Source: Eledone cirrhosa (Eukaryota). From it: DNA of 64,000 nucleotides. Of this stretch, positions 180 to 55,119 are shown one piece after another. The position numbers and the translations under genes are program-made. The notes under the pieces are model-generated. The model made no database searches. It was not told the DNA's origin and saw nothing but the letters and a program-made list of their open reading frames with translations. Position 1 is the stretch's first letter; the number at the start of each line of letters is the position of its first letter. The DNA lies in contig CAXHJY010001391.1 of assembly GCA_964016885.1 (NCBI GenBank), forward strand, positions 1 to 64,000. The letters run 5' to 3'.

Positions 180-4440
<4,261 letters not shown>

Positions 4441-4535
4441 ATACATATGTATATATATATGTATATATATATATATATATGTATATGTATATATATATCT
4501 ATGTATATATATATGTATATATATATGTATATATG

Positions 4536-9302: not shown

Positions 9303-10140
9303 AAATAATTGTTTCTACGTTTGGCACAAGACCAGCAATTATCCCAGTGCATTACCGGTGCTTTATTTTATTGACCCTGTAAGGATGAAAGGCAAAGTTA
9401 ACCTCGGCGGGATTTGAACTCAGACCATCAAGGGCTGTGGCTCTATGCTGCAAAGCATAACGTCCGACCCTCTACCAAATAATTGTTTCTACTTTTGGCA
9501 CAAGACCAGCAATTGTTCTAGTGCATTACTGGTACTTTATTTTATCGACCCCGTAAGGATGAAAGGCATAGTTAACCTCGGCGGGATTTGAACTTAGAAT
9601 GGCAAGGGCCGTAACTCTATGCGTCAAAGCTTGGCGTCCGATACTGCCAATCGATCCTCTACCAAATAATTGTTTCTACTTTTGGCACAAGGCCAGCAAT
9701 TGTCCCAGTGTATTACTGGTACTTTATTTTATCGACACCGTAAGGATGAAAGGCAAAGTTAACCTCGGCGGGATTTGAACTCAGACCATAAAGGGCCGTA
9801 ACTCTTTGCTGCAAAGCATGGCGTCCGACCCTCTACCGATACTGCCAATCGACCCTCTACCAAATAATTGTTTCTACTTTAGGCACAAGGCCAGCAATTA
9901 CCCAGTGCATTACTGGTACTTTATTTTATCGACCCCTACCAAATAATTGTTTTACTTTTGGCACAAGGCCAGCAATTACCCAGTACATGACTAGTACTTT
10001 ATTTTATCGACCCCGTAAGGATGAAAGGCAAAGTTAACCTCGGCGGGATTTGAACTCAGAATGGAAAGGGCCGTAACTCTATGCGTCAAAGCATGGCGTC
10101 CGACCCTCTACCGGTACTGCCAATCCACCGACCCCTACCA
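9303..10140 (-). mobile_element. Five head-to-tail copies of a ~190-bp tRNA-type SINE (family S1)
   Basis: Units start at AAATAATTGTTT(C)TAC near 9303, 9477, 9664, 9862 and 9941. The minus strand has a B-box GAGTTCAAATC, and complete units have an A-box TGGCAGTATCGG. Confidence 0.85.
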
Positions 10141-10319
10141 AATAATAAGGCGGTTTTAGAAAGTAAGCACCGCGGTCGATATGATCCACTAGATTATGGT
10201 GGTATCCCAGCATCGCCGCAGTCTAATGACGGAACCAGTAAGAGGATAAAAGAATAAGAATATATTGTTATACTTGGGAGGAAGTGGGGGCTCTGCCCCC
10301 ACAACCCTCTCAGGAATAA

Positions 10320-10705: not shown

Positions 10706-13700
10706 GCTTTCTTTATTAACCACAAGGGTTTACATAAAGTAGACATTAAGGACAGTACAGGACAATACAGGACGGTACAAATGGGCATTTCTGCGTGTAA
10801 AAAAAAACAGAGGATATAATTAAAAAAATAACAATGAAAAATTCCCCAATAGGGGGAAGACTTCCGAGGGACATTTGTGGAGAAAGCCCATTAAAAGGCC
10901 ACAGTGACCCTGACCACCAGGGCAAGTGCCCTCTCCCAGTTTTCCACCATTAATTTACAGACACATACTCAGAGTTGCTTCTCTCACCCATCTTTCAACA
11001 AAATGCTGGGAAAAGAGCACTTCCCTCTCTACCCTGATTTTCCTTTTCAAATGAAATTTGAAAAAGTTAATCAGGGCATCACCGAAGAGGTAAGTGCTCG
11101 TCTTCAGCCCTTTCAAACGTGTCCACCATACTATCTCTTTCGCCATGGCCACCAGACAGATAAAAACTGCCTGCCCTTCCCGGCTAAAGGAAGAGGGTGG
11201 GGAAATCCTCACGATGGACTCAGCTGATAGCTGGATCCGTCCTACACGTGACAGCAGGTGTTCGACACAAGTCAGCAATGCTCGGACACTGGACGAGTGC
11301 GTGCAGGATGGTTTCGTCGCCCTGCGTGCATCTCGGACATGCCCGGCTGACGGTACCTCCATGCCTGTAGAGTTTATCCCGAACTGGCAAAGCTCCTCGG
11401 TAGCACTGCCAGGCCAGGGATTTCTGGAAGTTGTCCATAGGCCCCGGCCTGAAAGTCCTTCCGAAGAGATGGGCTAGTTGATTTTCGTCGACGCCTAGAG
11501 TTTCTCCAAGTACGTCGTCGCTCTTTCCCTCCACTAATCCTCTATAGAACGCCAAGGTGGAGTTTCCACCGATCACATTGCCCGATTGGTCGAGGGCTGT
11601 GAGCGCCTGAAGACATTCCAGTCTCCAAGCGCTCCTTCTCGGTCATCGCTTGACCCAGGACTGCAGCTCCGTCAAGGAGACGAGCTGGGGAAAGACGTGT
11701 CTAGCAAACGGCGATCACACCTGATCACCGTCGAGGAAGAGGTGGAGATGTCGTAGCCTGAGCGCGTGTCTGCGCATCATCAGCCACGGCATGCCCAGCC
11801 CTCCACGTAGCGAGTGTTGACAGCAGATGGACCGCCTGACCATCGGAGCGCATTCCTTCCACAAAAAGCGAAAGAGCAAACGCTCCAGCGCAGTCAGGCG
11901 GGGCTTAGGACAAGGTACGACGATCAGGCGGTAGTAGATGACGGACGCGATGTACGCGTTAGCCACCTCCGCTCGACCTTTCAGGGATAGCTTCCTCTCC
12001 GCCCATTTCTGTGTGAGAGAAGCCACCCTACTCGTCACCTCGTCCCAGTTTTTCCGTCTCGAGGTCCGGACCGAACCAGACCCCTAGCAATTTAACCGGT
12101 CCGTCCGTCCAGCGTCCGACGACGCTGTTGGACGGCATCGACCTGCCTCTCCAGGTGCCGAGCTGCAGGCCCACTGACTTTTCCTGTTTGATCATTGCTC
12201 CTGTCACCGCTTCGTATTCTCTTAGTGTAGTGCCGATCGCCTCGATGTGTTTGGCGTTCGACACCACTACGGTGACATCGTCCGCATATGCTGACACGGA
12301 TCTTCCGCATCCTAGTTCGCGCGGGACCCCCCTCAACGTCTCCAGTTTGTGCAGTAATGGCTCGAGAGTCAATACGTACAAGAGGGACGAGAGGGGACAT
12401 CCTTGGCGGACCGAGCGCATGATGTTGAACGGTTCCGAAAGGTGACCGTTCACTCTCACCACAGAGCAGATGTCGCTGTGCATGGCAGCGATCCAGCCTC
12501 CGAAGACAGGCCCAAAGCCAGCCGCCCTCAGGACTGCCGCTAGGTAACGATGGTCGACCCTATCGAAAGCTTTCGACTGATCTAAATTGATCAAGGACCC
12601 ACCCGTGCCAGGTTACCTAGCTACCCTCTCTACGATGTATCGCATGAAGTGGAGGTTGTCGTGGATGGATCTGTCGGGAATGGCGCATGTCTGCGCCTCT
12701 CCCATCAGACCACCAACGACAAGCGCCTACCTCTTTGCTAGCACCTTGGCCAAAATCTTGAACTCTGTGTTTAGCAGAGTTATGGGCCTGAAATTTTCTG
12801 TGTTATCCCCCTTGTTCGGATCCTTTCTCAGCAGCGCCACAGCTCCTCGGCTCACAGAGCTGGGAATTCTCCCGTTCTGTTGCCAGTTGCAGTAGACGTC
12901 CGCCAAGAGGCCTCCGAACAAGTCTGGCATCTGTAAGTAAAGTTCATAGGGCAGACCATCCAAACCAGGCGATATACCCCTTGTGCAGCCACTCATTGCC
13001 TCCCGTACTTCAGCTGCTGTTATCGGCTTTTCGCAACACTCCGCCTCAGTGGCCGAGAGCCGCGGCAGTCCGTCGAGGTAGACACTAAAGTCCATCCCTC
13101 GATTCGGCCCGCCGCTGCCCCCGAACAGCTGGGCGAAGTGTCGCTGGAAAGCTTCACACATTTGCCCGGGATCGAGTAGCATGCGCCCGTCGTGGTCCAC
13201 CAAAGACCGGATCGTGGCTTTGTTGCCACGACGCGCCTCCGCCACTCGGGCCCATTGAACGGCTTTCGTCCCCTCGTGTCTGAGAGCACGCACCCTAGCT
13301 CTGACAACGCAGCCTTCGTGCTTTGCATTGAAGAATTGGTCAAGGGCCAATTTCGCCGCAAGTACGTCGGTCGCGATGCCTTTGCTAAGCGCCTCGTCTA
13401 ATTTTCTAACTAGTTCTCCTTCTGCTCTATTTTTCTCTATTGCTAAAGCCTTACTAAATCTAATGGACTCTATTCTAATCGCTCTTTTAAGAGCAAACCA
13501 CCACTTGTTGTTGACGATGGCCCCCGTCAACGCCCGCTTAACTAGTTCGCTAATCCGGTCTCTGTAGGCCTTGCGCGCTGGGAAGGACGCGTTTAGCTTC
13601 CAGTAGCTGGGTCCTCGTCTATGAAGCCTATCTAAGTCAAGCACACAGATCACGAATTTGTGGTCCGTGTAGCTGACTATCTTGAATTGTGGACAGCCTA

Positions 13701-16588
13701 TGCTAGACCTATCTATTTCCCTACAAAATACTCTATCTAGATATGATCTGGATGACCATATGCGATTTGTCCAAGTCCACATTGGCACATTCGGGAAATC
13801 CAATCTGTACCTGTCAGACAGTTCAAAACACCTGAGCAGGTTGGTGAGGCTCTTGCACCCTCCTCCCCTATCCGCTAATCCCACACAGTCCCAGCGTGCA
13901 TCTAAGATCCCATTCCAGTCGCCCACTAACACTAAAGAGCGGGACGTTCCAAGAAAGGTCTCCAGACGCCGGAAGAAATCAGGCCGCCCTGCTCCTGTCG
14001 GGGCATAGACGGCCTGATTTCTAGCCTGAAAGCATTGCCGTCACTGCTGGTCACGTCCAGCACCACCAACTTACCTTGGCGAGATCCAAACATCTCCAAA
14101 AAAGCACAGCAACTCCTCCCCCCGATCCAGGACGGCTGGGAGATGCGTACACATCGTAGCCGCCGAAGATCGGTGCGAAGGCCCGTGCTTCGGAGATTCT
14201 GGTCTCGCTGATGGCCACTACATCTATGTTTAGTGACCTGAGGTCGTTGAGCAGGTGGCCCTGCTTCCATGACGACCCCAAGCCACGCGCATTTATGCTG
14301 CCTATTCTGAGTGAGGTCATGTTGAAATGGAGTGGAAAAGATGGGAAAGACCACTTACCTTAATTCTCGTAGAGGAAGGATGGTTTCTCCATCCTTTTCA
14401 CTGCTTGTGGCCTCCTCCGGAAGGATGTCCTTATAAATCCTCCTGGAGAGTGCTTGTCGGAAGTCTCTGATGTCTTTGGGGAATTTTTGTTTTAGTGTCG
14501 TGTACGTTTTCTGTGTGATGCGAGTGACTTGTATGTGTGGAGGTGGTGTGAACTTTTGGGTTGTTGTGTAGTCTTTTTCTGTGATGCTGGTGTTGTGTTG
14601 GATGTAGTGTAATAATTGGTTGTTGTTCAAATTTAATGCTGTGTAGTGTGTATCGTTTTGGTTGTTTTGTTTTGTTTGCGTTTGTTGTGGGTTTGTTTCT
14701 GTTTCGCTTTTTGGTGACTTTTGTGGTGTTGGTGATGGTGGTGTTGGGGTTAATGATGGTGATGGTGTTGGTGTTTGTGGTGATGGGGTTGGTGATTCTG
14801 GTGTGGATGGTGGCATAGCTGTCCTAACTTTTTTGTTTGATAGTTTATTTGTTTACCTCTGTATTTTGTTTTTGGAGGGGGAGGAAAGAGGATTTTTTCT
14901 TTTTGGGTTTCTTTTTCTTTTTTTCTTTTTTTCTTTTTTTCTTTTTTTCTTTTTTTCTTTTTTTCTTTTTTTCTTTTTTCTTTTTTTCTTTTTTTCTTTT
15001 TTTCTTTTTTTCTTTTTTCCTGATGCCGTTTCCCACTCCTCGTCGTCACAATCTGTCTCCAGTTGCGATAGGTCGGGGAGTGGAAAATCCTCCACAGGCG
15101 TTGGTTTTGGTTGTGGGGTGGTGGATGGTGTAGGCGCTGGTGCTAGTTCTGGCGCGTTGGGTGGTGGTGATGTTGGTTTTGCTACTGTTGCTGGGGTTGT
15201 TGCTGTTATAGTTGCTTCTGTTGCTGCTGCTACAGTTGTTGCTGCCATTTCTGCTGCTGGTTGTGTTGATGGTTGAGTCACTGGGGTGGGTAAGAGATGT
15301 GGCCTCAACCTTTTAGCCTGAGGGCAGAAAGCCCTTAGGTGGGTTCCTTCACCACAAACGACACACCTAGGCCTTCTGCCCTTGACGATTACGGTGAGGT
15401 GGCTGCCGTCAGTGAGGTCTATTACCTCTGGGATCTCCTCAATGCTTTTTTGGTCCCCTTGGATCAGGAGCTCCATCCCAGATCCGGACCAGTTCTCCTG
15501 CTTTTCTTTCGCTATTTCGATTATCTTGGTGTTGGCTTCGATGCCGGCGAGGACGGCAGCAATTAGCCAGGGAATTTCGATGGCCGGTGGAACGTGGGTC
15601 ACCCTGATCTTCACGAGTCTCTGGCCACAATAGCTTGGGACGAGTGTGAAGTCGTCACTTCTTAATGGGGCCATGGAGTGTTCTCTGGCCTCCTGTAGTG
15701 TTTCAAAGAACACGTCCACGGTTCCATATTTCTGCCCACGTCTCATGTGGGTTTTTTTGCCCACACATGTCCCAAATTTTTTGGATTTGGGAGTCGGATG
15801 CCCGTTCCACTCGGCGCGATTTTATGTTGATCGTCCGATAAGACACGGTGCATAGGCGCCGATGCTCCATTTTATTATTGGGGGGGGGGGGGCTGACCCT
15901 GTACCCATCTTTCTTTACCATTTGTTTGGCTTCTTCTAATTCCTCCTGAGTTACCTGAAATGCTTCGCACTTTTTTGCTACTCTCGCAAAAGACAGGGTA
16001 GTTTTCTTAATTTCATTGTTGCTGTTGTTGTTATCGTTATTTTTGTTATTGTTAATTTTAGTTTCAGTTGTGGTGGTGGTGGTGGCGTCAGTGGTGTTAC
16101 GTGTGGAAGAGTTCATTTTGGTTGAATTCATTTCGATATCACGAGTTAATTTATTTTTTTATTTTGTTTCTGTTGTCGCTGTGGTGGTGGTGGGGGTGGC
16201 GGCTTTAACACCTGCAGTCATTGGTAATGGCGGGAAATGAATGTCTGCCTGAGACAAATTTAAAATATTGCTACTGCTTATATTTTTAGTGTTGGCAAAC
16301 GTAGTAATATTTACAATGGTGGTGTCGGTGTGAGGTGTTAGTTTGCGAGGAAGGTGTGACGCTGAGTCGTCCATGATTTTTCAAAAATAAATTTGTGTTT
16401 GATAATTATAAAAGTTAAAATTTTGGGCTCAAGGCCCCAATCTTTTTGGGTGTCCTTTTCAGATAACAATGTATGTGCACTTACATACAGTTAACAATAA
16501 AAATTTTCCATAAATGGAAATTTTAAACAACTGAAAATAACAAACCTTTGCGGAGCTCACGATGATACGATTTACTACGTAGGTCACC
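10706..16588 (-). mobile_element. Near full-length Tx1/L1-clade non-LTR retrotransposon (frameshifted)
   Basis: ORF1 remnants at 16374-14355 include a CCHC knuckle CVVCGEGTHLRAFC. ORF2 from 14320 has APE (SINARGL, ISETR, GDWN, YLDR, TDHK), RT (DQSKAFDRV, QGCPLS, YADD) and a C-terminal CPRC...ETILHALVQC. Bounded by (AAT)8 and (AAT)14. Confidence 0.95.
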
Positions 16589-16632: not shown

Positions 16633-19600
16633 TTTCTTTATTGGCCACAAGGGCTGACATCAAGAAAAACATTACAGACGGCACAGTACGGTACGATGTG
16701 GGTTTTGTGCGTGTAAATATTTTTATTATTTATATAAGAAAAGAAAAAAAAGGGACATAGAAACATATATATATATAAACAATAAAAATGAAAATTGAAA
16801 CAATGAAAAATTCCCCAATAGGGGGGAAACCTCCGAGGGTTACTCGTGGCGAAAACCACACAAAAGACCACGGCCACCCTGACCACCAGGGCAAGCGCCC
16901 TCTCTCAATTTTTCCATTTCTCAAACTACAGACGTATATTCAGAGTGGTCCCGTTCACTCGGACCATTCTCGCTACATTCACCCACCTTTCAACAAACTT
17001 GCTAGAAGGCAGCACTTGCCTCTCCACCCTGATTTTCCTCTTCAAGTGAAACTTGAAAAAGTTAATTAGGGATTCGCCGAAGAGGAAAGTGTCTGTCTTT
17101 AACCCTTTTAACCTTGGCCACTACACAATCTCTTTCGCCATGGCCACCAGGCAGATGAAAACCACCTGCCCTTCCTCCTCGAAGGAAGACGGCGAGACCA
17201 TCTGCACAATGGACTCAGTCGACAACCGGATCAGTCCTACACGCGACAGCAACTGTTCGACATAGCTCCACAAGTCAGCAATGCTCGAGCACTGAACGAG
17301 TGCGTGCACGACGGTTTCGTCGCTCTGCGCGCATCTCGAACAGGCTCGGCTGACGGCACTTCCGTGCCTGTAGAGCTTATCTCGAACTGGCAGCACTCCC
17401 CGGTAGCACTGCCAAGCCAGGGATTTTTGGAAGTTATCCATAGGCCCTGGGCTAAAAGTTCTCCGGAAGAGAGCAAACAGCTGATCTTCTTCGACGCCAA
17501 GGATCTCTCCGAGAATGTCGTCGCTCTTCCCCTCCACTAGTCCTCTATAGAATGCCGAGGTGGATGTTCCACCGATATTGGTGCCCAGCTGGCAGAGGGC
17601 AGTGAGCGCCTGGATACATTCCAGTTTCCAAGCGCTATCCCTCGGTCTTTTTCTGACCCAGGACTGCAGCTCCGTCAAGGAGACGAGCTGTGGGAAAACG
17701 TGCCTGGCGAACGGCGATCACACCTGTTCACCATCAAGGAAGCACCAGAGATGTCGCAGCCTCAGCGCATGTTTTCGCATCATCAGCCATGGCATTCCCA
17801 GTCCTCCACGCAACGGGTGTTGACAGCAGATGGATCGTCTGATCATGGGAGCGCGTCCCTTCCACAAAAAGCGGAAGAGGAGGCGCTCCATTTTGGTGAG
17901 AGTTGGGCTGGAGCAAGGGACGACGGTGAGGCGGTAGCAGATGACGGATGCGATGTACGCATTCGCCACCTCCGCCAGGCCTTTCAGTGACAGCTTCCTC
18001 TCGGCCCATTTCTGGGTGAGGGAGGCCACCCTGCTCGTCACTTCGTTCCAGTTTTTCCCCATCTGGAGGTCCGGTCCGAACCAGACCCCGAGCAATTTAA
18101 CCAGTCCGTCCAACGCCCCATGACGCTGTCGGATGGCATGGACTTGCCTCTCCAGGTGCCGAGCTGCAAGCCCACCGACTTTTCCTGGTTTATCTTTGCT
18201 CCTGTTACCGCTTCGTATTCCTTGAGAGCGGTGCCGAGCATCTGGACGTGTCTGGTGCTCGACACCACCACGGTGAAGTCATCAGCGTAAGCGGACTCGG
18301 ATTTCCCGCATCCTAGTTCGCGTGGGACGCCCCTCATCGCCCCCAGTTTGTGCAGTAACGGCTCGAGAGCCAATACGTACAAGAGGGACGAGAGGGGACA
18401 ACCCTGGCGGACTGAGCGCATGATGCTGAACGGCTGCGACAGGTGACCGTTCACCCTCACAACTGAGCAGATGTCGCTGTACATTGCTGCGATCCAACCC
18501 CTGAAAACGGGCCCGAAACCGGCTGCCTCGAGGACCGCCGCCAGGTACCGATGGTCGACCCTATCGAATGCTTTGGATTGATCCAAGTTGATCAGGGCCC
18601 CACCCGTGCCAGGTTCCTTAACCACCCTCTCTATGATGTATCGCATGAGGTGGAGGTTGTCGTGTATGGATCTGTCCGGAATGGCGCATGTCTGCGCCTC
18701 CCCCACCAGACCCTTGACGACAAGCGCCAACCTCGTTGCTAACACCTTGACCAAAATCTTGAACTCTGCGTTTAGCAGGGTTATGGGCCTGAAATTATCA
18801 ATAACATCCCCCTTATTCGGGTCTTTTCTCAGCAGCCCCACTGCTCCCCGGCTCACAAAACTGGGAATGCTCCCGTTCTGCTGCCAGTTGCAGTAGACGT
18901 CTGCCAAGAGGTCACTGAACAAGTCTGGCATAAATGCATAAAGCTCGTAGGGCAGACCATCCAAACTTGGCGATTTACCCCTCGTGCAGTTAGCCATCGC
19001 TTCCCGTATTTCACCGGTTGTTATTGGTTTTTTGCAACACTGTGCTGCGGTCGTCGAGAGCCGAGGCAGTCCGTCGAGGTATGCACTGAAGTCCATGCCC
19101 CGATCCGGGCCGCCCCCGAACAGTTCAGCAAAGTACTGCTGAAAAGCTTCACACATCCGCTCGGGTTCGAGCATCACGCACCCGTTTTGGTCAGACAAAG
19201 ACCGAATTGTGGCTTTGTTGCCACGTCGCGCCTCTGCCACCCGGGCCCATTGGACGGCTTTTGTCCCCTCGTGTTTCAGAGTACGCGCTCTAGCTCTGAC
19301 AACGCAGCCTTCGTGTTTTGCGTTGAAGAATTGGTCGAGTGCCAATCTCGCCGCAAGCACGTCGCTTGCGATGCCTGTCCTAAACGCCTCTTCTAGCTTT
19401 CTGACTAGCTTCCCTCTACTCTATTTTCCTCTATCACTACTCCTTTGCTAAACCTAATCGACTCTACTTTAATTGCCCTTTTCAGTGTGAACCACCACCT
19501 GTTGTTGACGACCGCTCCCGTCAATGCCCGCTTAACAAATACGCTAATCCGGTCTCTGTAGGCCTTGCGCGCCGGGAAAGACGCGTTCAGCTTCCAGTAA

Positions 19601-21060
19601 CCAGGCCCTTGTCTATGAAGTCGGTCTATGTCGATCTCACAGATCACAAATTTGTGGTTTGTGTAGTCGACTATTTTAAATTGTGGACAACTTATACTAG
19701 CCTTATCTAGTTCTCAGCAGAATACCCTATCGAGATACGATCTGGATGACCCGATGCGGTTTGTCCATGTCCACATTGACACATTCGGGTGATCCAGTCG
19801 ATACCTGTCAGACAGTTCAAAACCTCTGAGCAGGTTGGTGAGGCTCTTGCACCCTCCTCCCCTATCCACTAACCCCACACAATCCCAGCGTGCATCCAAG
19901 ATACCGTTCCAGTCGCCCACTAACACTAATGAGCGGGACGTTCCAAGAAAGGTCTCTAGATGTCTGAAGCAATCTGGCCGTCCTGCCCCTGTTGGGGCGT
20001 AGACGGCTACTAGCCTGAAAGCATTGCCTTCGCTACCGGTCACGTCCAGCACCACCGACTTACCTTCTGGGTCTAGGAAGATGGCCCGTATTGCGAGATC
20101 CAAGCCTCTCCGAAAAAGGACGGCAACCCCTCCCCCCGATCCTGGACGACTGGGAGATGCGTATACATCGTAGCCGCCGAAGATCAGTGCGAAGGCTTGT
20201 GCTTCGGAGATTCTGGTTTCACTGATGGCCACCACATCTATGTTTAGTGACCTGAGGTCGTTGAGCAGGTGACCCTGCTTCCAAGATGACCCCAGGCCAC
20301 GTGCATGTATACTGCCTATTCTGAGTACGGCCATGTTGGATGAGAAACGGGGCAAGTGAGAAAGGCTCACTTACCTTGATCGTGTGGTGAAGGGATAGTA
20401 GAACCGTCCCTTTGGCTGGTCATGGGTGTTTCCAAGAGGATGTCAGTGTATATCCTCTTGGTAACCGACCCTCTGAAGTCTCCAACTGCGTTGGGGAATT
20501 TTTGTTTTAAAGGTTTGTACTGTTCTATTGAGATTTCGATGATGCTTATGTTTGTCGGGAGAGTTCTTGGTGTTGGTGGGGTGTAGTAGTTTTTTTCTGT
20601 GATGTCTGTGTGCTGCTTTATATATTGTATGAGTTCTTTTTTTTGCCATGTTTATGGCTGTGTACTTTTTGGGGAGGAGGGGTGATTTTGTTGCTGCTTT
20701 CTTCTTGTTGCTGTTTGGTGTTTGTGTCTTGTTGTGTTTGGTTGTTGGTGTTTTTGGTGATGCTGCTGGTGGTGTGGTTGTTGTTGTCAGTGGTGCTTGT
20801 GGTGGTGATGGTGATGGTGTTGCTGCAAGTTTCCTTGCAGCCTTTACCCCTCTTTGTATGCCTTCGCTTTTGGAGGGTGAATCTAAGGGTTTTTTTCTTT
20901 TTTCTTTTTTGTGGCAGACCGTTTGCCACTTCACTCCCGCCTCAAACTCCATGTCGGATTCTGAGGCCTCTGGGAGGGGTATGTGCTCCACGGCTGTTGG
21001 TGGTGGTAGTGGAGCCCTCTTCGGCAATTTTGTTGCTGGTGTAGCTACTTCAAATGTAGC
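16631..21060 (-). mobile_element. Second Tx1/L1-clade element, 5'-truncated within ORF1
   Basis: APE at 20334-19400, RT at 19360-18038 (YADD), Zn finger CSRC...HALVQC; 3'UTR homologous to element 1. Confidence 0.95.
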
Positions 21061-21385: not shown

Positions 21386-21490
21386 CGGTGGTGATCGTGG
21401 TGGTAAGAAACTCTCAGGGGAGAATGACAGCAGAAGGTCGCCAGAGAAGAAACACCCACAAGCGAGTGTTTCGGCCTTATATATATATAT

Positions 21491-23146
<1,656 letters not shown>

Positions 23147-24201
23147 GAAATGGCTGTGTAGTTGCTATTTAAGGTAACTTAAAATGCAGTGGGAATACGA
23201 AGAAAGCAAGAACAGTGGGGGTCCTCATCAGTTGTCTACTGGATGTCTAGGATATTTCTACTCTTTAAAGACAAGATACCACTTCACCCCAGGGAGTCAA
23301 TAACTGGATAAGTTATTGGGAAAACGAAGGAAGGAAATCAAATGAGAAGAAAAGAGAAACAATAACAAAACAGCGAAAAAACCCACAAACCGAGCAATGT
23401 GCGAGCAACTATAGGTAGGAAATAGAAGAACACCATATTCGAAGATCGAGCCGCAGCCAAGCCGACGAATGCATTCAGAAGTGCAGCCAAGCACTCGACA
23501 AGGTATAAAACCTCAGAGTAATAATATACAGTTTAAAGGGCTTTGCAAATTAAAGATAGCGACCGGTAATTCAGCTGGTGGGTCCGTAGCAACGAAAGAA
23601 CTGACTCGCGAGAAAAATACATACATATATATATAACAAACCTGGACCACCACTTCAAAATTTTGCAATATCTCAGTTAGGTTTCTGTAAATCCGAAATC
23701 AACAAAATCCGCTTGCAGTGTATACAAGTTAAGTTTCTGGGAGATCGAACAGTGGATTTACTTTCTCAACAGGCTTCCGTTCTGACACCAGTCCGGTTGT
23801 GAGGGCACATGTTACTCCCAAGAGAGCTAACCCCGGTTTTTGGAGGTCAAATTCAAATTATGAGCAATGGAATAGGTTCCGTACACAAACTGAATTAAGC
23901 ACTCAACCAGACCGTTATTAAACAAACATAAATAATTAACCAATCAATAGAATTGTCTAATTAAATTAATCAATTAATCATTAAGTCTAGGAGATAGTAA
24001 TACAAATGGAAGTACAGCATATTCGAAGCTCGAGCCGCAGCCAAGCCGACGAATGCATTCAGAAGTGCAGCCAAGCAACGAAAGAACTGACTCGCGAGAA
24101 AAAATACATACATATATACATATATATATATATACTTTTTAAATGGAAGTTGCATTATTCTAAGGTATGTCAAAATTATTTATAAAACAGCTTATATATT
24201 G

Positions 24202-24267
24202 TATTTTGTCTGAGGAAGGCATACCATATTTTTAATATGATATCCCAGAAATATATATAACGAAATA
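24202..24267 (+). ncRNA. Predicted type I hammerhead ribozyme (minimal stem III)
   Basis: Stem I TATTTTGT/ACGAAATA; CTGAGGA at 24210-16; imperfect stem II capped by CATATT-ttt-AATATG; GAAA at 24248-51; T-ATAT-A with an ATA triplet; AATAAA at 24264-69. Confidence 0.6.
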
Positions 24268-24397
24268 AATATGGTTTTATAAATATAGTTTCCATTTGTT
24301 TAATATCGTAAACCTACTCCAAAAACTGTTGAGTGCTTTTATATCAGTTATAAAATATTTACTCGTTGTAACCCAACAATTTTTAATAAAACTTTTG

Positions 24398-24469
<72 letters not shown>

Positions 24470-24470
<1 letters not shown>

Positions 24471-24790
24471 CCTATCCTGGAAACGACATCCCACCTTGTC
24501 TAAAATCTATGGCAAACTCCCTCGAGCCTCTGCCCTTCTAAAATCCCGGAGAGCTCAATTTGCTGGCCACTGTCATCATGCCAGCAATGAAATCATATCC
24601 GCTCTCTTGCTCTGGAACCCTGACTCCAGCCTGACTAGGAGTAGGAAGCTGTCATTCCCTGACGTTATCTCTAGGGATACGGGAATCAGTAGACAGGACC
24701 TGGGGGCAGCGATGGGGGACAGGGAATTCTGGGGCATGAGAGTGAGATCCGTCATCTCGACAGTAGTCGACGAATGATGATGATGATGAT
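24470..24790 (+). mobile_element. RTE-type LINE 3' fragment (distinct family)
   Basis: RRAQFAGHC...LLLWNP thumb motif; TGA stop runs into (GAT)n; embedded in (TA)n. Confidence 0.75.
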
Positions 24791-24822
24791 ATATATATAT
24801 ATATATTCAATTTTATTATTAT

Positions 24823-24888
<66 letters not shown>

Positions 24889-24896
24889 GGAATAAC

Positions 24897-25830
24897 AAGT
24901 TATCGTTATAGGCAATTCACTTAGAGGTAGTCCAGTTAGTTAGAGTATTCCGTGTTGTGGATGGTATTAACGTATGGCTTAGTTTGACTCAACAAGACGC
25001 TTCCATAGTGATGCAGCGAGTTCGCGGTGATTTCTATGTAGGTTATACTTGGAGTAATAATAATTCAAGAAAGAAGAGTAACATGGTTGTCTGTACAATA
25101 AGGGCTTTATTCACAGTGCTGACAATTGTTTCTTTGATCTGGTAGGTCTAGAGCTCGCTAATCGCTTGATGTTGCGTCAATGGATCTCCAATACTTTGTT
25201 TATAACCAGTCAATTCATCAGAGCGTGCGGATGTGAGGATAATACGCAAGGCATGGCTTTTATAGTGGAGTGGTATTAGACCAGAACAATAAAATCAATA
25301 ACAAAATAACTAGATACTGAATCGTTAAAATAATAACATCAATATAAGTAAGAAATAGAGTATAATGATAAAACTAGCATGGTAAACGAACTGATATGAT
25401 ACAGATGTATGAAATTGACATGTGAAAACTACTATAGGGTACATTAGATGTAGTATTTGAGGGATGAAGAGATAACTAATAAAATGTACTTAGAGTCACA
25501 TTTTGGAATCTACACTTTAAGTGCAATTATGGGGGATCTAGATACAAGCGTGCTGTGGGTCTAAAAGCACACTAGCAATAAACCGGAGATTGATTTATGG
25601 TTTGACAGATAAGTATTTTCGTTGTATCAACTTAGTGAGATTGATAGAGTGAGTGTATAGAGATATATAGTTCTTAGGTGGTATTAAGTGAAATTGCAGA
25701 TTCAGTATTTTAGGGTTTAGGTGGCCTATTCTAAATGTTGGGATTGCTAGTTCGAATCATGGGGGTTTAGTTTTCACAACATCAATAACAAATAGCGTAT
25801 AATTAAGACAATAACATCAACAATAAAATA
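24897..25830 (-). mobile_element. Penelope-like element 3' remnant
   Basis: Minus-frame FRIGHLNPKILNLQF (~25690-25735) resembles the C-terminal FRLGTLxPxGLN motif of PLE GIY-YIG proteins. A hammerhead and AATAAA follow, and TA repeats flank the segment. Confidence 0.5.
25112..25229 (-). ncRNA. Predicted type I hammerhead ribozyme
   Basis: Minus strand: CGCACGCT-CTGATGA-(a)TTGACTGGT...ACCAGATCAA(a)-GAAAC-AATT-GTC-AGCACTGTG, then AATAAA. Stem III ACAATTGT is palindromic. Confidence 0.7.
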
Positions 25831-26080
25831 TGAACTATATATATATATTACAAACCTGGACCATCACTTCGAAATGTTGCAATATCTCAGTTAGGTTTCT
25901 GTAAATCCGAAATCAACAAAATCCGCTTGCAGTGTATGCAAGTTAAGTTTCTGGAAGATCGAACAGTGGATTTACTTTCTCAACGGGCTTTCGTTCTGAT
26001 ATATATATATATATATTCTGATATATATATATATCACATAAGAAACGGAGAATCAGTGGTGCGACGAATAAAATTTATTA

Positions 26081-26162
26081 GACATATTACAATCGTTTCT
26101 CGAGGCACGATCGATGTAGTGATCGAACCTGACTCTGAAATCGCAAGATCCTCAGATACGTC
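26081..26162 (-). ncRNA. Predicted type I hammerhead ribozyme (inverted copy with a 13-nt stem II deletion)
   Basis: The minus strand reads GACGTAT-CTGAGGA-...-GAAAC-GATT-GTA-ATATGTC, then T and AATAAA. It lacks GCTGTTCGCCAGA, so stem II is weakened. Confidence 0.55.
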
Positions 26163-26180
26163 ACGATTCTACGAAGCACG

Positions 26181-26277
26181 AGACGTATCTGAGGATCTTG
26201 CGATTTCAGAGTCAGGTTCGATCATTGCATCGATCGTGCCTCGAGCTGTTCGCCAGAGAAACGATTGTCATATGTCT
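26181..26277 (+). ncRNA. Predicted type I hammerhead ribozyme
   Basis: Stem I AGACGTAT/ATATGTCT; core CTGAGGA (26189-95); long stem II TCTTGCGA...TCGCCAGA; GAAA (26258-61); stem III AC-gatt-GT; GTC cleavage triplet (C26269). Confidence 0.75.
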
Positions 26278-26824
26278 ACTAAATTGTATTCGTCGCACCA
26301 CTGATTCTCCGTTTCTTATGTGATATTATACTCTGCTCTGTAAGAGCATCGAGTGCTCAAACGGCCTACCGCTTACGGACGCTTTAAGCATCCCACACCA
26401 ATTATATATATATATATTTAAAAAATAGAGGGGTGACACACGAGTTGTGATATATTAGTAAAAAGAAAAAGAAAATGCTGACAAATTTTTCCCAGTGAAA
26501 AATAGTTTAATTAGGAATAAGTATGAATTAGTAATAAGTATTAGTTTGTATTCAGTTTTAGTTTTAAGTTTTTACCGGTTGCGCATTTCTAATGCTTTTC
26601 AAAAATAATTTTGAGATAGAGCGCTCGTGATGTTTGCTCTAATCTGATCAGTTTTGGAAATTCTTTCTGTTTTATGTGAAAAAAATGGCTCCAGAGGTAT
26701 TAAGATTTGGTTGGTTGTTGAATGTCACGTGAATAAGCACTATAAATTTCGCGCCAATTCGTGTTGCAAAAATTCTTGTAGTCAAAACAATTTTAATTGG
26801 TCGGTAGAAGTCACGTGAATATTA

Positions 26825-26900
26825 AAATTGATTTTAGCGCGAACTGGTTTCGCGACAAACCTACATTTGGCGCGAAACCAGTTCGCGCTAAAATCAATTT
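26825..26900. repeat. 76-bp hairpin palindrome
   Basis: AAATTGATTTTAGCGCGAACTGGTTTCGCG ... CGCGAAACCAGTTCGCGCTAAAATCAATTT, with perfect 30-bp arms. Confidence 0.95.
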
Positions 26901-27668
26901 AAATTAAATTAAATTAAGGGTGTCATGTCAGAGAGACATGCGCCATATCCACTGTAGAATATGCTCCAAGATTCCAATGAATAGATCCGAGCATTTTATA
27001 TCAACTAGAAATTGATTGACATATATATATATATCTAAAATAAACATATGAAACAATCCCAGGATTGGCACATGTCTCTCTGACATGACACCCTTAATTT
27101 AATTTAATTTTGGATATATATATACGGCCCCTTAATTGTAGAACTAACTCAGTTGAAAGGACTCGGCTGCTATTTCTAGTTGTCGATAATCCTATTCACG
27201 CCACTGAGATGAACCTGGTACGATGTGTGTATTTTTGAGAAATGCAACACGTGCTACTGGCCATTCGCAGATTTGGATTTGCTGTGTAAACACAGATATT
27301 TAAGTCTTCTTCCTTGTTGAAAATCTGGATTTGGCTACTGTGGTTTACCGAAAGATTGATGGTGAAATATATTTCTTTAATGAAATATATACAAGGAAGA
27401 TTAATCCATTTATAAGGTATCTATTTTTAAAGTTCTAGTTAAACTTTAATTAGTTACCTACATAGCTATGTCTGCTTACACACTTTTACAAATTATTCCC
27501 TGTGATTGTTTCATATGTTTATTTTAGATATATATATATATATATATATGTCAATCAATTTCTAGTTGATATAAAATGCTCGGAGCTATTCATTGGAATC
27601 TTGGAGCATATTCTACAGTGGATATGGCGCATGTCTCTCTGACATGACACCCTTAATTTAATTTAATT
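26901..27668. repeat. Nested inverted repeats
   Basis: 26901-27058 is inverted at ~27504-27668; its first 40 bp are also inverted at 27071-27110. Confidence 0.9.
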
Positions 27669-27699
27669 TTGGATATATATATATATATAGTTGCATCAT

Positions 27700-28190
27700 C
27701 GTTCACTTAGATGAACGATGCCGCAGGCAAGGCATCGACTCAGTCCCCTGAGAAGTTTGCGCTTGCAGAAAGTAAGCGACTCCTTGAAAATTAAGCAAAT
27801 TGATCAAAGTGAGAGTTGAAGGTGTCGCTCGAACGCATATTGTCCCATACTCTCTGCTTCCGTCAATCCTCGTCGGTATCAGAAGCGGATAAACCCAGAT
27901 CTCTCCGCTGTAGTAAAGCTTCATCCATCTCCCTGGTGGAACTAATCCATGTAGGAAAGGAGAGGATGTCACCGACTAAAGGGGAGCAAACGTAGATGGA
28001 GGAAAGAAAGCAATGAAGCGGCAGTGAAGGGCATTTACGCAGACCGAGACCTCCAAAACGTTTGGGCAAGGCAACCTGGTCGCGGGACTCTGGAGAGAGT
28101 TTGTCATTGACCAAGCCCTTAAGTTCACTGAAGATTAAGTCGTCAAAACACAACACAGTGGCTGTAGCAAGATTTCGACAGGATATCCAG
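27700..28190 (-). mobile_element. CRE-like non-LTR retrotransposon fragment (post-RT region)
   Basis: QVALPKRFGGLGLRK...CFLSS motif. Confidence 0.6.
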
Positions 28191-44004: not shown

Positions 44005-44577
44005 TCACGTGATGCGCATGAAAGACGACAGCTGTATAAAAAAGTGCAGGGCAATAAAAATAGACGGTAGCCACGGAGTAGGCAGACCCAGAAAAACCTG
44101 GGACAACTTGATAAGTTCCGACCACACACACTTACACCTCTCCAAGACAATGTCACTGGACCGAGAGCTTTGGCACTACACAGTAATAGAGAAGACTCGC
44201 CTTACCTAAGTACAAAGTGAAACCTACTACAGTCAGTAGGCACCTCTAACAAAATACACCCCCCGTCCCACTACCCCTTTCAATGTAAAGTTATGTTGGT
44301 ACCACAACATCCAGCCCGAAACAAATGAGGTCGTGTAGGTGTCACGACAAAAAAAACACACAGTCCACGCTGTAATGTGGCCGTGTAGGTAACACGGTAA
44401 AAACCTCCCAGTTTCACACTGTAAATCTGGTTGGTGTTGGAAGGGCATCCAGCTGTAGAAAACCCGCCAGACAGTCCTATGCGAGCAAGACAACCACTCT
44501 TGCCTCAAGTGGGAAAACCCCCGTCCAAACCCATGCAAGCGTGGAATATGGACGTTAAACGATGATGATGATGATGA
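44005..44577 (+). mobile_element. RTE family A 3' fragment (EMC7 intron 2)
   Basis: [16 protein letters not shown], plus 3'UTR and (GAT)n. Confidence 0.9.
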
Positions 44578-44939
44578 AACATATAGCATATGCTTTCATA
44601 TACAACCCTATATGACGAAGGACCGTGATGGGTGGAGAGATGCTGTGCTGAATAGGACCCGTCCAACCCTTGCAAGCAGGGAAAAGCGGACGTAAAATGA
44701 TGATGATGATATACAGAGGAATTTGTAGTTTACTTGAAGCATTGTGTATGGTATATAAAATTCGAAGTTTGAAAGTGTCTGCAGACACTGGATTAATCCC
44801 CTTTATTTTCCTCAGAAGAGATTTTAATCCCGAAATATCAAGACATAAATAAATTAAGGTAAAACACATAACATCTTATTTCACTCTTAATCCATTCATT
44901 TCACATTGTCGAGGCTTTCAAACTTCAAATTTTATATAT

Positions 44940-45782
44940 CATCACCATTTTACATCCGCTTTTCCCTGCTTGCAAGGGTGGGACAAGTCTTCTTCAGCAC
45001 AACATCTCTTCATTTGTCACGGTCCTTCGTCATTTCCTCAGTGAGCTTCAGCGATCTGAGGTCAGCTTTCACCACCTCCGCCCATGTTTTCCATGATCTT
45101 CCTTCTACCGGGATTTCTTGGCACTTCTTCACCCAGCCGTCATCTTCCTTGCGCATCACATGGCAGTCTTCTCCCCAGCACACTAGTTTATTCTTCTTAT
45201 ACACAGTTTCACTCTTAACTTGTCCATGATTGGTCGTTCACGCACATTGACATTGCACATCCATCAGAGCATGCTTGCTTCATTTCTCTCCAGGCTTCAC
45301 ATATCCTCCGCAGTTGCTGCTCATGTCTCACTACCATGCAGCATCGCGCATCTCACACAGGCACCATACAACCGACTTTTCGTTCATAGGGAGAAACCCT
45401 TCGTTGTCAACAGAAGAAACAGCTCCCTAACTTCTTCTATTTTGTCCTTATTCTAGATACTATGGCCTTGGAGCATCCTCCTCCCTTGCTAATCTGATCA
45501 CCTAGATATTGTAAGCTCTATAAATCCTACCTGCATTTGAAAAATATGCCTATCCCTGACACTTCTACTATCAATTTTTCTTGAACATCTACTACATATG
45601 AAGTTTTCCTTTCCTGTTAGTTTGCCTGCTATCCCACTACACCTCTTGTGTACCCAAGATCGGCATTGTGTACATTCTATAGAATTCATGCGAACTCCTT
45701 TTCTACATATCGAGCATGGCCATTTCCCTGATGGAATCAGAGTCTTGTCCTCTTTTCTACTTATCAACACTTTAGTCTTTGC
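44940..45782 (-). mobile_element. RTE fragment (family A relative with PHD-like finger)
   Basis: KTKVL...[22 protein letters not shown]; its 5' end abuts (TA)n. Confidence 0.85.
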
Positions 45783-46392
45783 TATATATATATATATATA
45801 CATACATATCATTTACGTCTGCTGTTCCACACTTGCATGTGTTGGACGGGTCTTTTTCAGCACAGCATTTCTCCACTTGTCATGTTCCTTCATCTCCTCT
45901 CTTTACCTTTATATAAATTATTCTTACCATCACTACACTCCCCCATTCTATCCAAGATCACCTTTACATAAATCGCAACACACCAGTCATACCTCCCTAA
46001 ATTTGTTCTCATCATCATTGTACTCTTACTCTAGCTGAGGTCACACAATTCCTATCTTACATCACACTGCTAAATCCCACCACAATTATCATACACCCAT
46101 GACATACTTTTGCACCCCTTCTCTACTTCACAATATAACATTTCCATGCAAAAAATAAATATATTCTCATTACTACTAGCTCTTTCAAAGTAGAAGTTAT
46201 CAGTTTTGTTCACAACAATAAAAAAAAAACAACAGGAAGCCTCTTCAAAATATACTTTTCACATCCTTTATATTGATGAGAAGATCTTTAACAAACTTTA
46301 TATTTCCATGCTGGCATATCCTGTGATAAACAGACAGAACACCAGAGTAACAAGACACACTATTTAACCTTAATAAAATGAATTTATACATA

Positions 46393-46426
<34 letters not shown>

Positions 46427-46427
46427 A

Positions 46428-47620
46428 TAAGGCGCCGGTCCCTTCCGGGAAATGGCCATGCTCAGTGTGTAGGAAAGGCGTAGGTAGAAACTCCATTTTA
46501 TGTCCCAAATGCAAAGGATGGGTGCATAAAAGATGTAGTGGGATCACAGGTAAGCTAACTAAGAACATAGATTTTACATGTGGCCGGTGCTCTGGTGCAA
46601 TAAGTAGCAGCAAGTGCCCACAAAATACTAGCTCTTTCAATTGCGCAGAGGATTCTATAGAAATAGTGGACAGCTTCCGTTACCTGGGTGACAAAATCAG
46701 CAGTGGGGGAGGGTGCTCTGAAAGTACAGTAGCTAGAGTCAGAACTGGATGGAAAAAGTTCAGAGAGCTTATACCACTATTAGCCGCTAAAGGGTTCTCC
46801 CTAAAAATGAAAGGCAGGTTGTATGATGCCTGCATACGAACAGCAATGTTGCATGGCAGTGAGACTTGGGCATTGTGTGCAGAGGATATATGCAGACTAG
46901 AGAGGAACGAAGCTTGCATGCTCCGCTGGAAGTGTAATAGTAATATACATGAACGGCAAAGCATAAACGAACTAAGGGAAAAATTAGAAATAAGAGGGAT
47001 CAGATGTTGTTTACTCGAGAGAAGGCTACGTTGGTATGGTCACGTGATGCGCATGAAGGACGATAGCTGTATAAAAAAGTGCAGGGCAATAAAGATAGAT
47101 GGTAGCCACGGAGTAGGCAGACCCAGAAAAACCTGGGACGACCTGATAAATTCCGACCTCACACACTTACACCTCTCCAAGACAATGTCACTGGACTGAG
47201 ATCTTTGGCGGTACTCAGTAATAGAGAAGACCCGCCTTACAAAGTAAAACCTACTACAGTCAGTAAGCATCTCTAACAAAATACACCCCCCGTCCCACCA
47301 CCCCCACCCCATCCACACCGCCCCTTTCAATGTAAAGTTATGTTGGTGCCACAACATCCAGGCCGAAACAAATGAGATTGTGTAGGTGTCACGACAAAAA
47401 AACACAGTCCACGCTGTAATGTGGCCGTGTAGGCAACACAGTAAAAACCTCCCAGCCCCACACTGTAAATGTGGTTGGTGTTAGGAAGGGCATCCAGCTG
47501 TAGAAAACCCGCCAGACAGTCCAATGCGAGCAAGGCAACCACTCTTGCCTCAAGTGGGAAAACTCCCGTCCAAACCCATGCAAGCGTGGAACATTGACGT
47601 TAAACGATGATGATGATGAT
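46428..47620 (+). mobile_element. RTE family A 5'-truncated copy (EMC7 intron 2)
   Basis: Highly similar to 3303-4440; the tail ends about 45 bp from the exon 2 donor. Confidence 0.92.
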
Positions 47621-47664
47621 ATATAATCAGTTTTGCATTTGAAAAGAATAAATAGCATACTCAC

Positions 47665-47958
47665 CTGAAAATAGTTAGCTTTCCCTCGTTCCCGGAATTC
47701 TAAAGGGTAGGCTATTGTCTTTAATGAAGCAGGCTGAAGGTTATTTACTTTACGAGCTCGCATTTTACCCTTTGAACTGATATCAACACGTGCTGGTTCA
47801 AATAAATATGCAGGATGGGTGATTTCTATGACATAAGAACCGGATGGTAGAGATCCAACTGTAAAAGTTCCATCAGTTCTTAAGAAGCCAGTAAATTCAC
47901 CTCCATCCACCAAAATTTTGATATGGGGCATCCAGTTTTTATCAGAATTAGATAGGAC
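47665..47958 (-). CDS. EMC7: EMC7 exon 2, VLSNSDKNWMPHIKILVDGGEFTGFLRTDGTF...PSGSYVIE...FEPARVDISSKGKMRARKVN...YPLEFRERGKANYFQ
   Basis: Acceptor tttcag, donor CAG|GTGAGT, 294 nt, phase 0. Carries the hallmark EMC7 motifs GFLxxDGxF, PSGSY and RVDIxSKGKMRAR. Confidence 0.95.
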
Positions 47959-48244
47959 CTGAAATTATAATACTAATTAAATATTTGTGACTAAATAGCT
48001 CCAACAAGTCGATACATACACATATATACATAAAATGCAATGTCACCTACTAACTGAATATGGAGGATATATGAATGCTTGAGAGATATAATTTTTATAA
48101 GTATTAAATTTAGGACACAATTATGCTTAATGACATTTACTGCTCAAGTCAAGTAGAATAACGTTTCAACTGTTTCAAGAGTTTTTTTTTAAATTAGGTA
48201 TTTTCCTCGACATCTACTGCACACAAATTAGTAAGATAGATGTG

Positions 48245-53380: not shown

Positions 53381-53495
53381 AATTGTTTCTACTTTAGGCA
53401 CAAGGCCAGCAATTACCAGTGTATTACTGGTACTTTATTTTATCGACCCCGTCAGCTTGAAAGGCAAAGTTAACCTCGGCGGGATTTGAACTCAG
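53381..53495 (-). mobile_element. Truncated S1 SINE
   Basis: Matches the S1 unit from tail to B-box. Confidence 0.85.
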
Positions 53496-53798
53496 TACAT
53501 AATATAGTTTAGTTATGTCTATATAGTGTGGATAGGGTATTTAAAAAAAAAGAAAATAACGAAACTCATTTGGGGTTGGTTATAAAACATGTAAAATTAA
53601 ATGATTCTATCATCCGTGAATATATATTTTGTGTATGTGTATTCTGAAATTGAGGGAATGAGAGAAGTTTAGTATAGAAGAAATTCATTATATTGTAATA
53701 ACAGAAACATAAGTATTAAGGGAATTCGTAAATCGATCACCCATCTTAGCAGACAACGAGCATAGAAGGCATGAAATACTTATAAACTGTATCCCTAC

Positions 53799-54040: not shown

Positions 54041-54774
54041 CACTCCTTTTTAATTTACTTGTCATATAATAAAGTATATTATATTCAATTTCTTCATGTG
54101 AAATATTATACTTGTAACTAGCTAGATCTCCTAATATATTTGTTAATAATCACATCTAAACTCAATGTAGGTGAAGATGTAATATAGTTTATGAAGGCAG
54201 AGGTATATTTAATAAAACGGACTAAGGGAAATAACTCAAGTGCGCCAATGGTATGGATTTAGATAAGTTTAATGGCAACGTATTGAATGATGTACATAAA
54301 AAAAAAAATCCCATAAAAATCTAGCAGTAATTGTTAGTCATTCTCATACAAAAGAGGGAAATAATTTCCAGAAATATTTCTTTAGCTTGTGGAATTCGCG
54401 ATGATCGCGGGAATCGATTTCTTGTCTTACTTAAGGATCAAGTGATGCTCATAAGGGTGCTTGGCTATTTCAGCGCCTTAGCCTCGCTATCATCTACGGT
54501 GATGCCATGAGCGTCTTGGTTTGCCTCAAACATATTTTAGAAGGCTACACCAGCATTCCCAGTTGCAGTGTGAATTTAATCTGTATTTCTCTTTCCGTTT
54601 ATTTTCGATGTTTTTTTATTTTTATTTATTTATTTATTTATTTTTTTGTAAGTAATAAACATGATATAATTTAATATACAGTTTACTTTGTGGGAAAACA
54701 CTGAACGGAGTAGGATGAAGTTTGTTTGGTTTATTGCAAAATAAAGTGAAGGGAAATAACTCAAGTAAGATAAT

Positions 54775-54962
54775 TGTTTCTACTTTAGGCACAAGGCCAG
54801 CAATTACTCAGTGCATTACGGGTACTTTATTTTATCGACCCCGTAAGGATGAAAGGCAAAGTCAACCTCGGCGGGATTTGAGCTCAGATCGTAAAGGGAC
54901 GTAACTATGCTGGAAAGCATGGCGTCAGACCCTCTACCGATACTGCCAATCCATCCACCCTT
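54775..54962 (-). mobile_element. Complete S1 SINE with 16-bp TSD
   Basis: TSD ACTCAAGTAAGATAAT at 54759-54774 and 54963-54978; A-box and B-box-like motifs on the minus strand. Confidence 0.92.
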
Positions 54963-55119
54963 ACTCAAGTAAGATAATGGCGTGAATTTAAATAAGTTAG
55001 CAGATAACGGTTGAATGGCGTACATTAAAATGTCTCATAAGAAAAAATTAGCTGTAACTTAGTGACTCTCATAGAAAAGTGGGAGGAGGGAGGGATAATT
55101 TTTTTATATGAATCAATTT

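Follow-up and report, generated by a model that had tools for sequence, protein, structure and literature searches.

Four predicted hammerhead ribozymes in three probable Penelope-like insertions of Eledone cirrhosa

Within about 2.1 kb of a 64,000-nucleotide stretch of Eledone cirrhosa DNA (contig CAXHJY010001391.1, positions 1 to 64,000; hereafter the window) lie what appear to be four hammerhead ribozymes, which raises the question of whether they form a working cluster that yields self-cleaved or circular RNAs or are the remains of mobile elements. We consider it quite probable that they are predicted hammerheads carried by three insertions, likely the 3' ends (pseudo-LTR, or pLTR, pieces) of three (TA)n-targeting families of Penelope-like elements (PLEs), and that the copies seen here are likely passive, partly decayed by-products.

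Four hammerhead cores in three insertions between TA runs

All four CUGANGA...GAAA-hexamer-UH cores that an earlier note had placed in this region are present, and its predicted cuts and 4-nt stem III loops (ATAT, AATT, GATT and GATT for HHR1 to HHR4) were confirmed (Table 1). In each motif the elements C3-U4-G5-A6-N7-G8-A9, G12-A13-A14, A15.1-U16.1 and H17 follow one another in type I order. A relaxed type I descriptor found five matches in the 64 kb, namely these four, each with a 4-nt loop III, and one at 28128 with a 7-nt loop. Block-wise dinucleotide shuffles (n = 60) gave 0.18 matches of any kind per window and 0.033 with a 4-nt loop, with a maximum of 1, figures that are somewhat generous because the descriptor was composed after the motifs were known. 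The number of type I motifs in the window is thus far above chance. Candidates at 28128 and 53841 did not exceed the shuffle rate and were set aside. A stricter descriptor with three stem II pairs directly at the core kept only HHR4, and one demanding an unbroken 6-bp stem I kept three of the four.

Table 1 Positions of the predicted hammerheads, their AATAAA signals and the insertions that hold them
Feature	Positions	Strand	Core	Triplet	Predicted cut after	Remarks
Insertion A	24135..24399	+				265-nt module with HHR1; 3' end 140 nt beyond predicted cut
HHR1	24202..24267	+	24210-24216	AUA	24259	
AATAAA of HHR1	24264-24269	+				overlaps stem I
Insertion B	24888..25835	-				948-nt module with HHR2, flanked by (TA)n
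AATAAA of HHR2	25111-25106	-				
HHR2	25112..25229	-	25221-25215	GUC	25121	
Insertion C (unit C)	26034..26402					head-to-head inverted unit with HHR3 and HHR4
Unit C, left arm	~26031-26165					plus 13 nt of sequence further upstream
AATAAA of HHR3	26079-26074	-				
HHR3	26080..26163	-	26155-26149	GUA	26088	left arm of C
Unit C, right arm	26179-26326					
HHR4	26181..26277	+	26189-26195		26269	right arm of C
Unit C, 3' extension (tail)	26327..26402	+				76 nt, right end only; fold z -2.1

Searches with the Rfam hammerhead models returned no match at the gathering score and none at E values up to 10 in five scans. The earlier note had named such a covariance-model search among the results that could refute it, and in this respect, with no model matching HHR1 to HHR4, the outcome went against it. 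From scans that had no control run, we infer that the long stem II is the reason for the missing match; letters found in related reads (see below) favour a conserved fold despite it. In one Rfam scan, matches to miRNA families were the product of the palindrome and the TA runs.

The motifs had been sorted into three types unrelated in sequence, and this held beyond the core: alignment scores for A against B and A against C fell inside the shuffled range, and B and C have one 17-nt core stretch in common, a score that 7 of 200 shuffles reached. What had been counted as four motifs are four cores but three independent events, HHR3 and HHR4 being the arms of one inverted repeat. They sit in three insertions (A, B and C), each with (TA)n at both boundaries, and the distance from predicted cut to module end ranges over 54-233 nt. 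In unit C it is 54 and 133 nt, and in B the long 3' end lies 233 nt past the predicted cut, with an alternative short end (25060) at 61 nt. Insertion B is likely a 5'-truncated PLE 3' end. In unit C, the segment 26324-26379 recurs, with high depth and with loose ends at 26324 and 26379, in subfamilies whose sequences diverge on either side of it; a twister as second ribozyme in this segment found no Rfam support.

The region is dense in TA runs, as 12 of the 30 in the window fall in 23000-27700, with other repeats lying between them as well. Finding as many as three insertions in a span of 2.1 kb has a P of ~0.003 under uniform placement and of ~0.018 under random choice of TA runs. The proposed hotspot thus finds partial support, but insertions piling up where TA runs are dense explain it better than a functional cluster does, and the locus itself is ordinary retroelement debris. 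Elsewhere in the window are fragments of LINE-type RT and AP-endonuclease, as well as an EMC7-like ORF at 47389-47964 that is 87% identical to its Octopus bimaculoides counterpart (next best 70%), which points to an octopod as the likely host.

Stems, self-complementary stem III and a polyadenylation signal behind the cut

Stems I, II and III can all form round the core in HHR1, HHR2 and HHR4, and HHR3 lacks the base of stem II. Stem I has 8 bp in HHR1 and HHR4 and 7 bp in HHR3, and is interrupted in HHR2. The stem II regions of HHR1 to HHR4 measure 31, 82, 49 and 62 nt, so the unusually long insertions reported earlier are indeed long, but they are imperfect hairpins rather than unstructured inserts. 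Their predicted folds were better than those of most shuffled sequences in HHR1 (z = -2.9, 3 of 300 shuffles as good), HHR4 (z = -2.4, 8 of 300) and HHR2 (z = -2.2, 9 of 300), the last reaching z = -3.9 with the read-majority base at 25182; for HHR3 the values were z = -0.9 and 56 of 300. The stem II of HHR3 equals that of HHR4 minus 13 nt that make up the 3' side of its base, and with this loss HHR3 is likely dead. Judging from the predicted folds, HHR4 is the best-formed copy of the four.

The G10.1-C11.1 pair, which is usual but not obligatory, occurs in none of the motifs. Position 11.1 is A in all four, the combination being A/A in HHR1 and HHR2 and U-A in HHR3 and HHR4. A11.1 is not universal, since one B subgroup among the reads (7 contigs) has U there. 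Pairs other than G-C at this place have already been published (PMC3088659, and part of PMC8557442 File S2).

Stem III consists of the palindromic TATATA in HHR1, the palindromic CAATTG in HHR2 and CGATTG in HHR4. The octamers from A15.1 to U16.1 can pair with themselves at all 8 positions in each of the four motifs, as perfect palindromes in HHR1 and HHR2 and with two G-U pairs in HHR3 and HHR4, which, as far as base-pairing models go, supports the earlier suggestion that the short stem III is suited to cleavage as a dimer. The monomer hammerhead fold makes up 5e-6 to 1e-4 of the predicted ensemble, and 0.004 in HHR4 with family letters; because nearest-neighbour models ignore the core and tertiary contacts, and no known ribozyme served as control, these low values would say only that stem III is weak.

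The reported AATAAA at or after stem I was found in three motifs, beginning 5, 10 and 9 nt past the cuts of HHR1, HHR2 and HHR3, respectively. HHR4 has ACTAAA here, which the family letter at 26279 turns into AATAAA. From a random position in the window, the probability of an AATAAA starting within 12 nt is 0.014, or ~3e-6 for three independent families, a figure computed post hoc. The 30 nt past the signal are mildly U-rich, within the top 13-18% of 142 AATAAA sites.

Copies in public reads and the origin of the insertions

To see how other copies of these families are built, we turned to four public sequencing runs mapped at 80% likeness onto 24890-26400, a stretch of ~1.5 kb that covers families B and C. 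In one of them (X1), 5810 contigs fell on this stretch. Depth peaked at 24890-25195 and 26063-26400, and in family B it dropped by one to two orders of magnitude towards the 5' side, in X1 from 25,000-139,000 at 24890-25195 to ~800-1,900 at 25451-25756. This gradient indicates 5' truncation of dispersed copies. Thousands of copies are a fair inference from the depth, which is not itself a copy number. Further copies of B stop at the (TA)n of position 24892 (31 contigs, and 312 and 477 reads) or at TA at 25060 (3 contigs of run X4), and one record of family C ends at TA at 26396. The final 640 nt of one 2606-nt X4 contig consist of B sequence.

The details of joints, loose ends and variant letters come from 15 of 48 joints, 24 of 1111 loose ends and 40 of 492 variant rows. 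Among the joints listed, those of family C link 26178 to eight points (26237, 26243, 26245, 26295, 26337, 26347, 26354 and 26358), so that this family repeatedly has inverted junctions, truncated to varying extents. They hold 4-16 letters in between, longer inserts being of a kind that would escape display, and this suggests that many C copies begin only slightly upstream of the hammerhead. Family B has two opposite-strand joints among those listed.

Several near-universal family letters improve the predicted folds. The letter at 25182 restores a stem II pair in HHR2, 26249 adds a G-U pair and 26163 completes stem I, while the letter at 26269 gives a GUA triplet, which stays within NUH. Among the 40 of 492 variant rows listed, the fold-improving letters are one-sided repairs and not two-sided covariation. 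Some relatives have broken cores, as in a loose-end group of run X7 at 25194 (278 reads) and, at 26098, in one contig of X1. At 25226, 25381, 25938 and 26391, RAD reads pile up next to near-GCATGC sites, which probably reflects restriction-site sampling rather than RNA ends; RAD letter frequencies near such sites are biased, for example at the stem I repair at 25225.

Together, the reads of B and C show a PLE-like insertion pattern, which bears out the earlier proposal of PLE-type termini in TA-rich DNA. Dispersed, 5'-truncated copies appear in the depth gradient of B and the variable truncation of C; an inverted 5'-truncated copy with a one-sided tail is found in unit C, and B has two 3' ends; and the hammerheads lie near the 3' end, as in a pLTR, with 54-233 nt from cut to end. 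PLEs have been described with an inverted 5'-truncated copy, a one-sided tail and a bias for (TA)n (in the parts of PMC8557442 drawn on here), and the sections of PMC4209133 used for comparison describe opposite-strand hammerhead pairs 100-700 bp apart, solo copies, palindromic stem III and low activity. Among PLE clades, Neptune, Hydra and Naiad have been reported to target (TA)n. We infer a PLE origin from the observed motifs, boundaries, inversion and copy pattern of B and C, and any assignment to a clade would likewise be an interpretation of them. No PLE RT or GIY-YIG domain was found by Pfam among 47 ORFs of the window or 24 read-through frames round the motifs, nor were the corresponding motifs found in a six-frame scan. 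For one of the three upstream B frames, phmmer found no match among 1.84 billion proteins. An ORF start after HHR2 was dropped as a candidate, having no homologue when one of the three downstream frames of B was compared with longer proteins (0 of 127 candidates). As to Naiad identity, no match appeared with the published cephalopod consensi among those compared; elements of this clade have an N-terminal GIY-YIG, CxC and DKA motifs and no canonical hammerhead, according to PMC8557442. Neither the family B nor the family C stem III motif occurs in the text of the PMC8557442 supplement, where line breaks can hide matches.

On this basis, an autonomous element elsewhere may have supplied an RT-endonuclease that nicks a TA run, upon which reverse transcription would start downstream of the hammerhead, ~54-61 nt or ~130-233 nt past the cut, and stop early. 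For B and C, the priming site would have been either a short one at 54-61 nt or a long one at 133 or 233 nt. In the system of PMC11167929, the tail is defined by two RT start sites that lie downstream of the hammerhead; the same source, in the parts consulted, also presents PLE hammerhead cleavage as protein-assisted and dispensable for insertion in vitro. In unit C, an inverted, more truncated second copy would also have been laid down, leaving the extension on one side. Each insertion would thus come to be flanked by TA, and the patch would go on gathering insertions. As part of the parent element, a single hammerhead would be a weak cutter, and dimer formation with another of its family through the self-complementary stem III, or assistance from a protein, would make it more efficient. 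A cut in the parent RNA would remove the downstream AATAAA, which could set cleavage against both polyadenylation and the read-through that reaches the priming sites.

The strongest alternative, though improbable in our judgement, is that A, B and C are dispersed monomers of non-LTR retrozymes, short non-coding units whose tandem masters elsewhere are transcribed, cut and circularised and whose copies PLE enzymes insert. The sizes would suit it: A, with 265 nt, falls inside the 170-400 nt monomer range, and so does C at ~240 nt if its family begins some 10-16 nt past 26178, a start suggested by the letters in the joints and by 59 loose ends of X1. A 2-bp stem III with a tetraloop is, moreover, the invertebrate retrozyme type (range and type both from the parts of PMC7229834 compared). 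Monomers often occur singly and retrozymes have their origin in pLTRs, according to the accessible part of a preprint (bioRxiv 10.64898/2026.07.22.740005), so the two readings are not fully exclusive. Yet no tandem repeat carrying a hammerhead occurs within the 64-kb window, no head-to-tail joint is among the 15 of 48 listed, B spans 950 nt or more here and forms the end of a 2606-nt contig, and the recurrent inverted junctions are a PLE signature.

A reading of unit C as a fold-back DNA transposon of MITE type, with hammerhead-like strings that are there by chance or non-functional, is very improbable. Such an element would explain a near-perfect palindrome flanked by TA, the missing Rfam match and the want of a canonical 10.1-11.1 pair; against it, the junction points vary between copies and one arm is extended, unlike fixed terminal inverted repeats, the motif frequency is far above that of shuffles, and the same architecture with AATAAA recurs in three unrelated families. 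Least credible of all is a functional cassette in which the two cores on each strand act together, HHR3 and HHR2 releasing a 967-nt minus-strand RNA (or HHR1 and HHR4 a 2010-nt plus-strand RNA) that is circularised, since the same-strand pairs belong to unrelated families, which should make stem I exchange in a dimer impossible, HHR3 lacks its stem II base, a read-through hairpin of unit C is favoured by a predicted ~100 kcal/mol and the DNA in between is a patchwork of other repeats.

Returning to the three insertions, the proposal that this locus itself produces self-cleaved or circular RNA found no backing. In the dimer model, two hammerheads exchange stem I strands, so a partner of the same family should be needed, and no family has two same-strand copies here; nor is there a hammerhead tandem, and the inverted unit would bury its ribozymes. 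For the unit C transcript, folding predictions give -250 to -254 kcal/mol for the long hairpin, versus -145 and -154 kcal/mol with either hammerhead formed. Given the missing same-strand partner, the damage to HHR3 and this predicted hairpin, activity at the locus is unlikely.

Significance and closest known systems

The association of PLEs with hammerheads is known; less usual are the very long stem II and the conserved AATAAA just past the predicted cut. A search of mostly open-access literature found no report of a conserved AATAAA behind PLE hammerheads, and this link with AATAAA may already be on record; beyond Craig et al. 2021, it found no report of octopus hammerheads, and on long stem II arms it listed only papers that look unrelated from their abstracts. 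In Octopus vulgaris, PLEs are abundant, with 31 recently active families, and the word 'ribozyme' does not occur in the part of that source available (PMC13282606). Counts based on Rfam overlook high-copy predicted hammerheads in the E. cirrhosa genome. The role of PLE hammerheads has been left open (in the sections of PMC8557442 cited here), and three unrelated families with a long structured stem II and AATAAA allow a simple test of a role in cleavage versus polyadenylation. A broader idea, which we hold to be doubtful, is that cephalopod (TA)n PLEs share an overlooked cassette, a long-arm A11.1 hammerhead with AAUAAA at once after it, present in thousands of copies and missed by Rfam and by short-spacer descriptors. 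Cleavage, gated by a protein-binding stem II arm or by dimer formation, would then switch between polyadenylated mRNA and read-through RNA for reverse transcription, and the cassette might account for part of the hammerheads reported missing in some PLE clades.

Outside the published elements, the family B pattern had no match in metagenome contigs. The family C pattern had four, all without the 5' core, stem I and TA runs and hence put down to chance. Among 120 of about 130 viral contig loci, 8 had a stem I of 4-5 bp, and blastn similarity did not go beyond chance.

The closest relatives are the pLTR hammerheads of EN+ PLEs (PMC4209133; PMC8557442 File S2), compared here with the available portions of both sources. 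They are alike in type I topology and a short self-complementary stem III, in placement (here 50-230 nt before the element 3' end), and in solo truncated copies, opposite-strand pairs and (TA)n targets. In the Hydra-clade table of File S2, as far as it was compared, positions 10.1/11.1 are often not G-C, many rows having U-U. The motifs described here differ from the published ones in having A11.1 in all four, in one-sided extensions of 76 and ~170 nt against the published 30-40 bp and in carrying no linked ORF. Stem II measures 62-82 nt in B and C, whereas the animal entries of File S2, counted by eye, do not exceed ~26 nt. No sequence match was found with the motif of Hydra-1_Obim or the Octopus Naiad 3' ends among those compared.

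Animal non-LTR retrozymes (PMC7229834; Li et al. 2026 preprint, both in the parts compared) resemble these insertions as non-coding units of 200-300 nt with type I hammerheads, a 2-bp stem III and a relation to PLEs, but they have tandem units and circular RNA, whereas here inverted junctions and no tandem were seen. The discontinuous hammerhead of mammalian Clec2 (PMC6765202, in part) likewise has a core split by a long insert and a cut upstream of the polyadenylation signal that removes it; it sits in the 3' UTR of a single host gene with an insert of several hundred nt, in contrast to the high-copy repeats with a structured 31-82 nt arm found here.

Judging from sequence, stem II arms of 62-82 nt would be a variant in an animal, and long stem II is known from the spike moss elements PLE-X1_sMoe and PLE-X1_sTam, whose entries in PMC8557442 File S2, as far as seen, carry the remark 'deviates from canonical structure'. 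The stem II of PLE-X1_sMoe measures ~54 nt, with an A before GAAA as in our motifs. PLE-X1 is, however, a plant element, endonuclease-less and rDNA-targeted, whereas the insertions described here are from an animal, TA-targeted and equipped with longer arms.

Unit D and its hammerhead-like core

The TA-dense patch that holds the hammerhead-bearing insertions also contains a further arrangement resembling Penelope-like elements (PLEs), unit D, whose sense copies end at (TA)n. An 84-nt palindrome (26821-26904) directly adjoins it. Within unit D we found a hammerhead-like core in addition to the four main ones, a U3-A8 variant with a TATA loop and a perfect stem I of 9 bp, a length of at least 9 bp being reached in 1 of 100 shuffles. 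No stem II was found at this core (z +0.9), and the core is possibly a decayed motif.

Features of unit D, the TA-dense patch and the rest of the window
Feature	Position	Strand
Unit D, PLE-like: inverted copy and two same-strand copies	26901-27689	
Unit D, inverted copy	26901-27063	
Unit D, short same-strand copy	27062-27124	
Unit D, long copy	27125-27683	
Fifth hammerhead-like core, inside unit D	27317	+
High-depth segment with small hairpins	26324-26379	+
TA-bounded repeat family without hammerhead	23622-23785 and 25836-25999; 23420-23493 and 24004-24077	
TA-bounded fragment terminating in (ATG)n	24470-24789	+
LINE with AP endonuclease, RT and zf-RVT, two copies	10830-14794, 16799-20825	-
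Repeat with RT then PHD finger, several copies	3301-4441, 21480-22901, 44005-47620, 62411-63750	
SINE-like repeat, 187 nt, tandem and dispersed copies	9303-10146, 53381-53502, 54770-54972	
EMC7 beta-sandwich domain, single open frame amid repeats	47389-47964	-
(TA)n array, 3.1 kb	180-3303	

A segment shared between subfamilies

The segment with high public-read depth is common to subfamilies that differ in both their upstream and downstream sequence. A search of Rfam returned no match to it; a role as a priming or protein-binding element is possible.

Other repeats and an EMC7-like frame

Elsewhere in the window, the two LINE copies are 80% identical to each other, and the EMC7-like frame, 87% to Octopus bimaculoides, is possibly a retrocopy. 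Among the remaining TA-bounded repeats, the family lacking a hammerhead is present as duplicates at 95% inside the TA-dense patch, and the fragment terminating in (ATG)n may resemble the 3' terminus of RTE-type LINEs.
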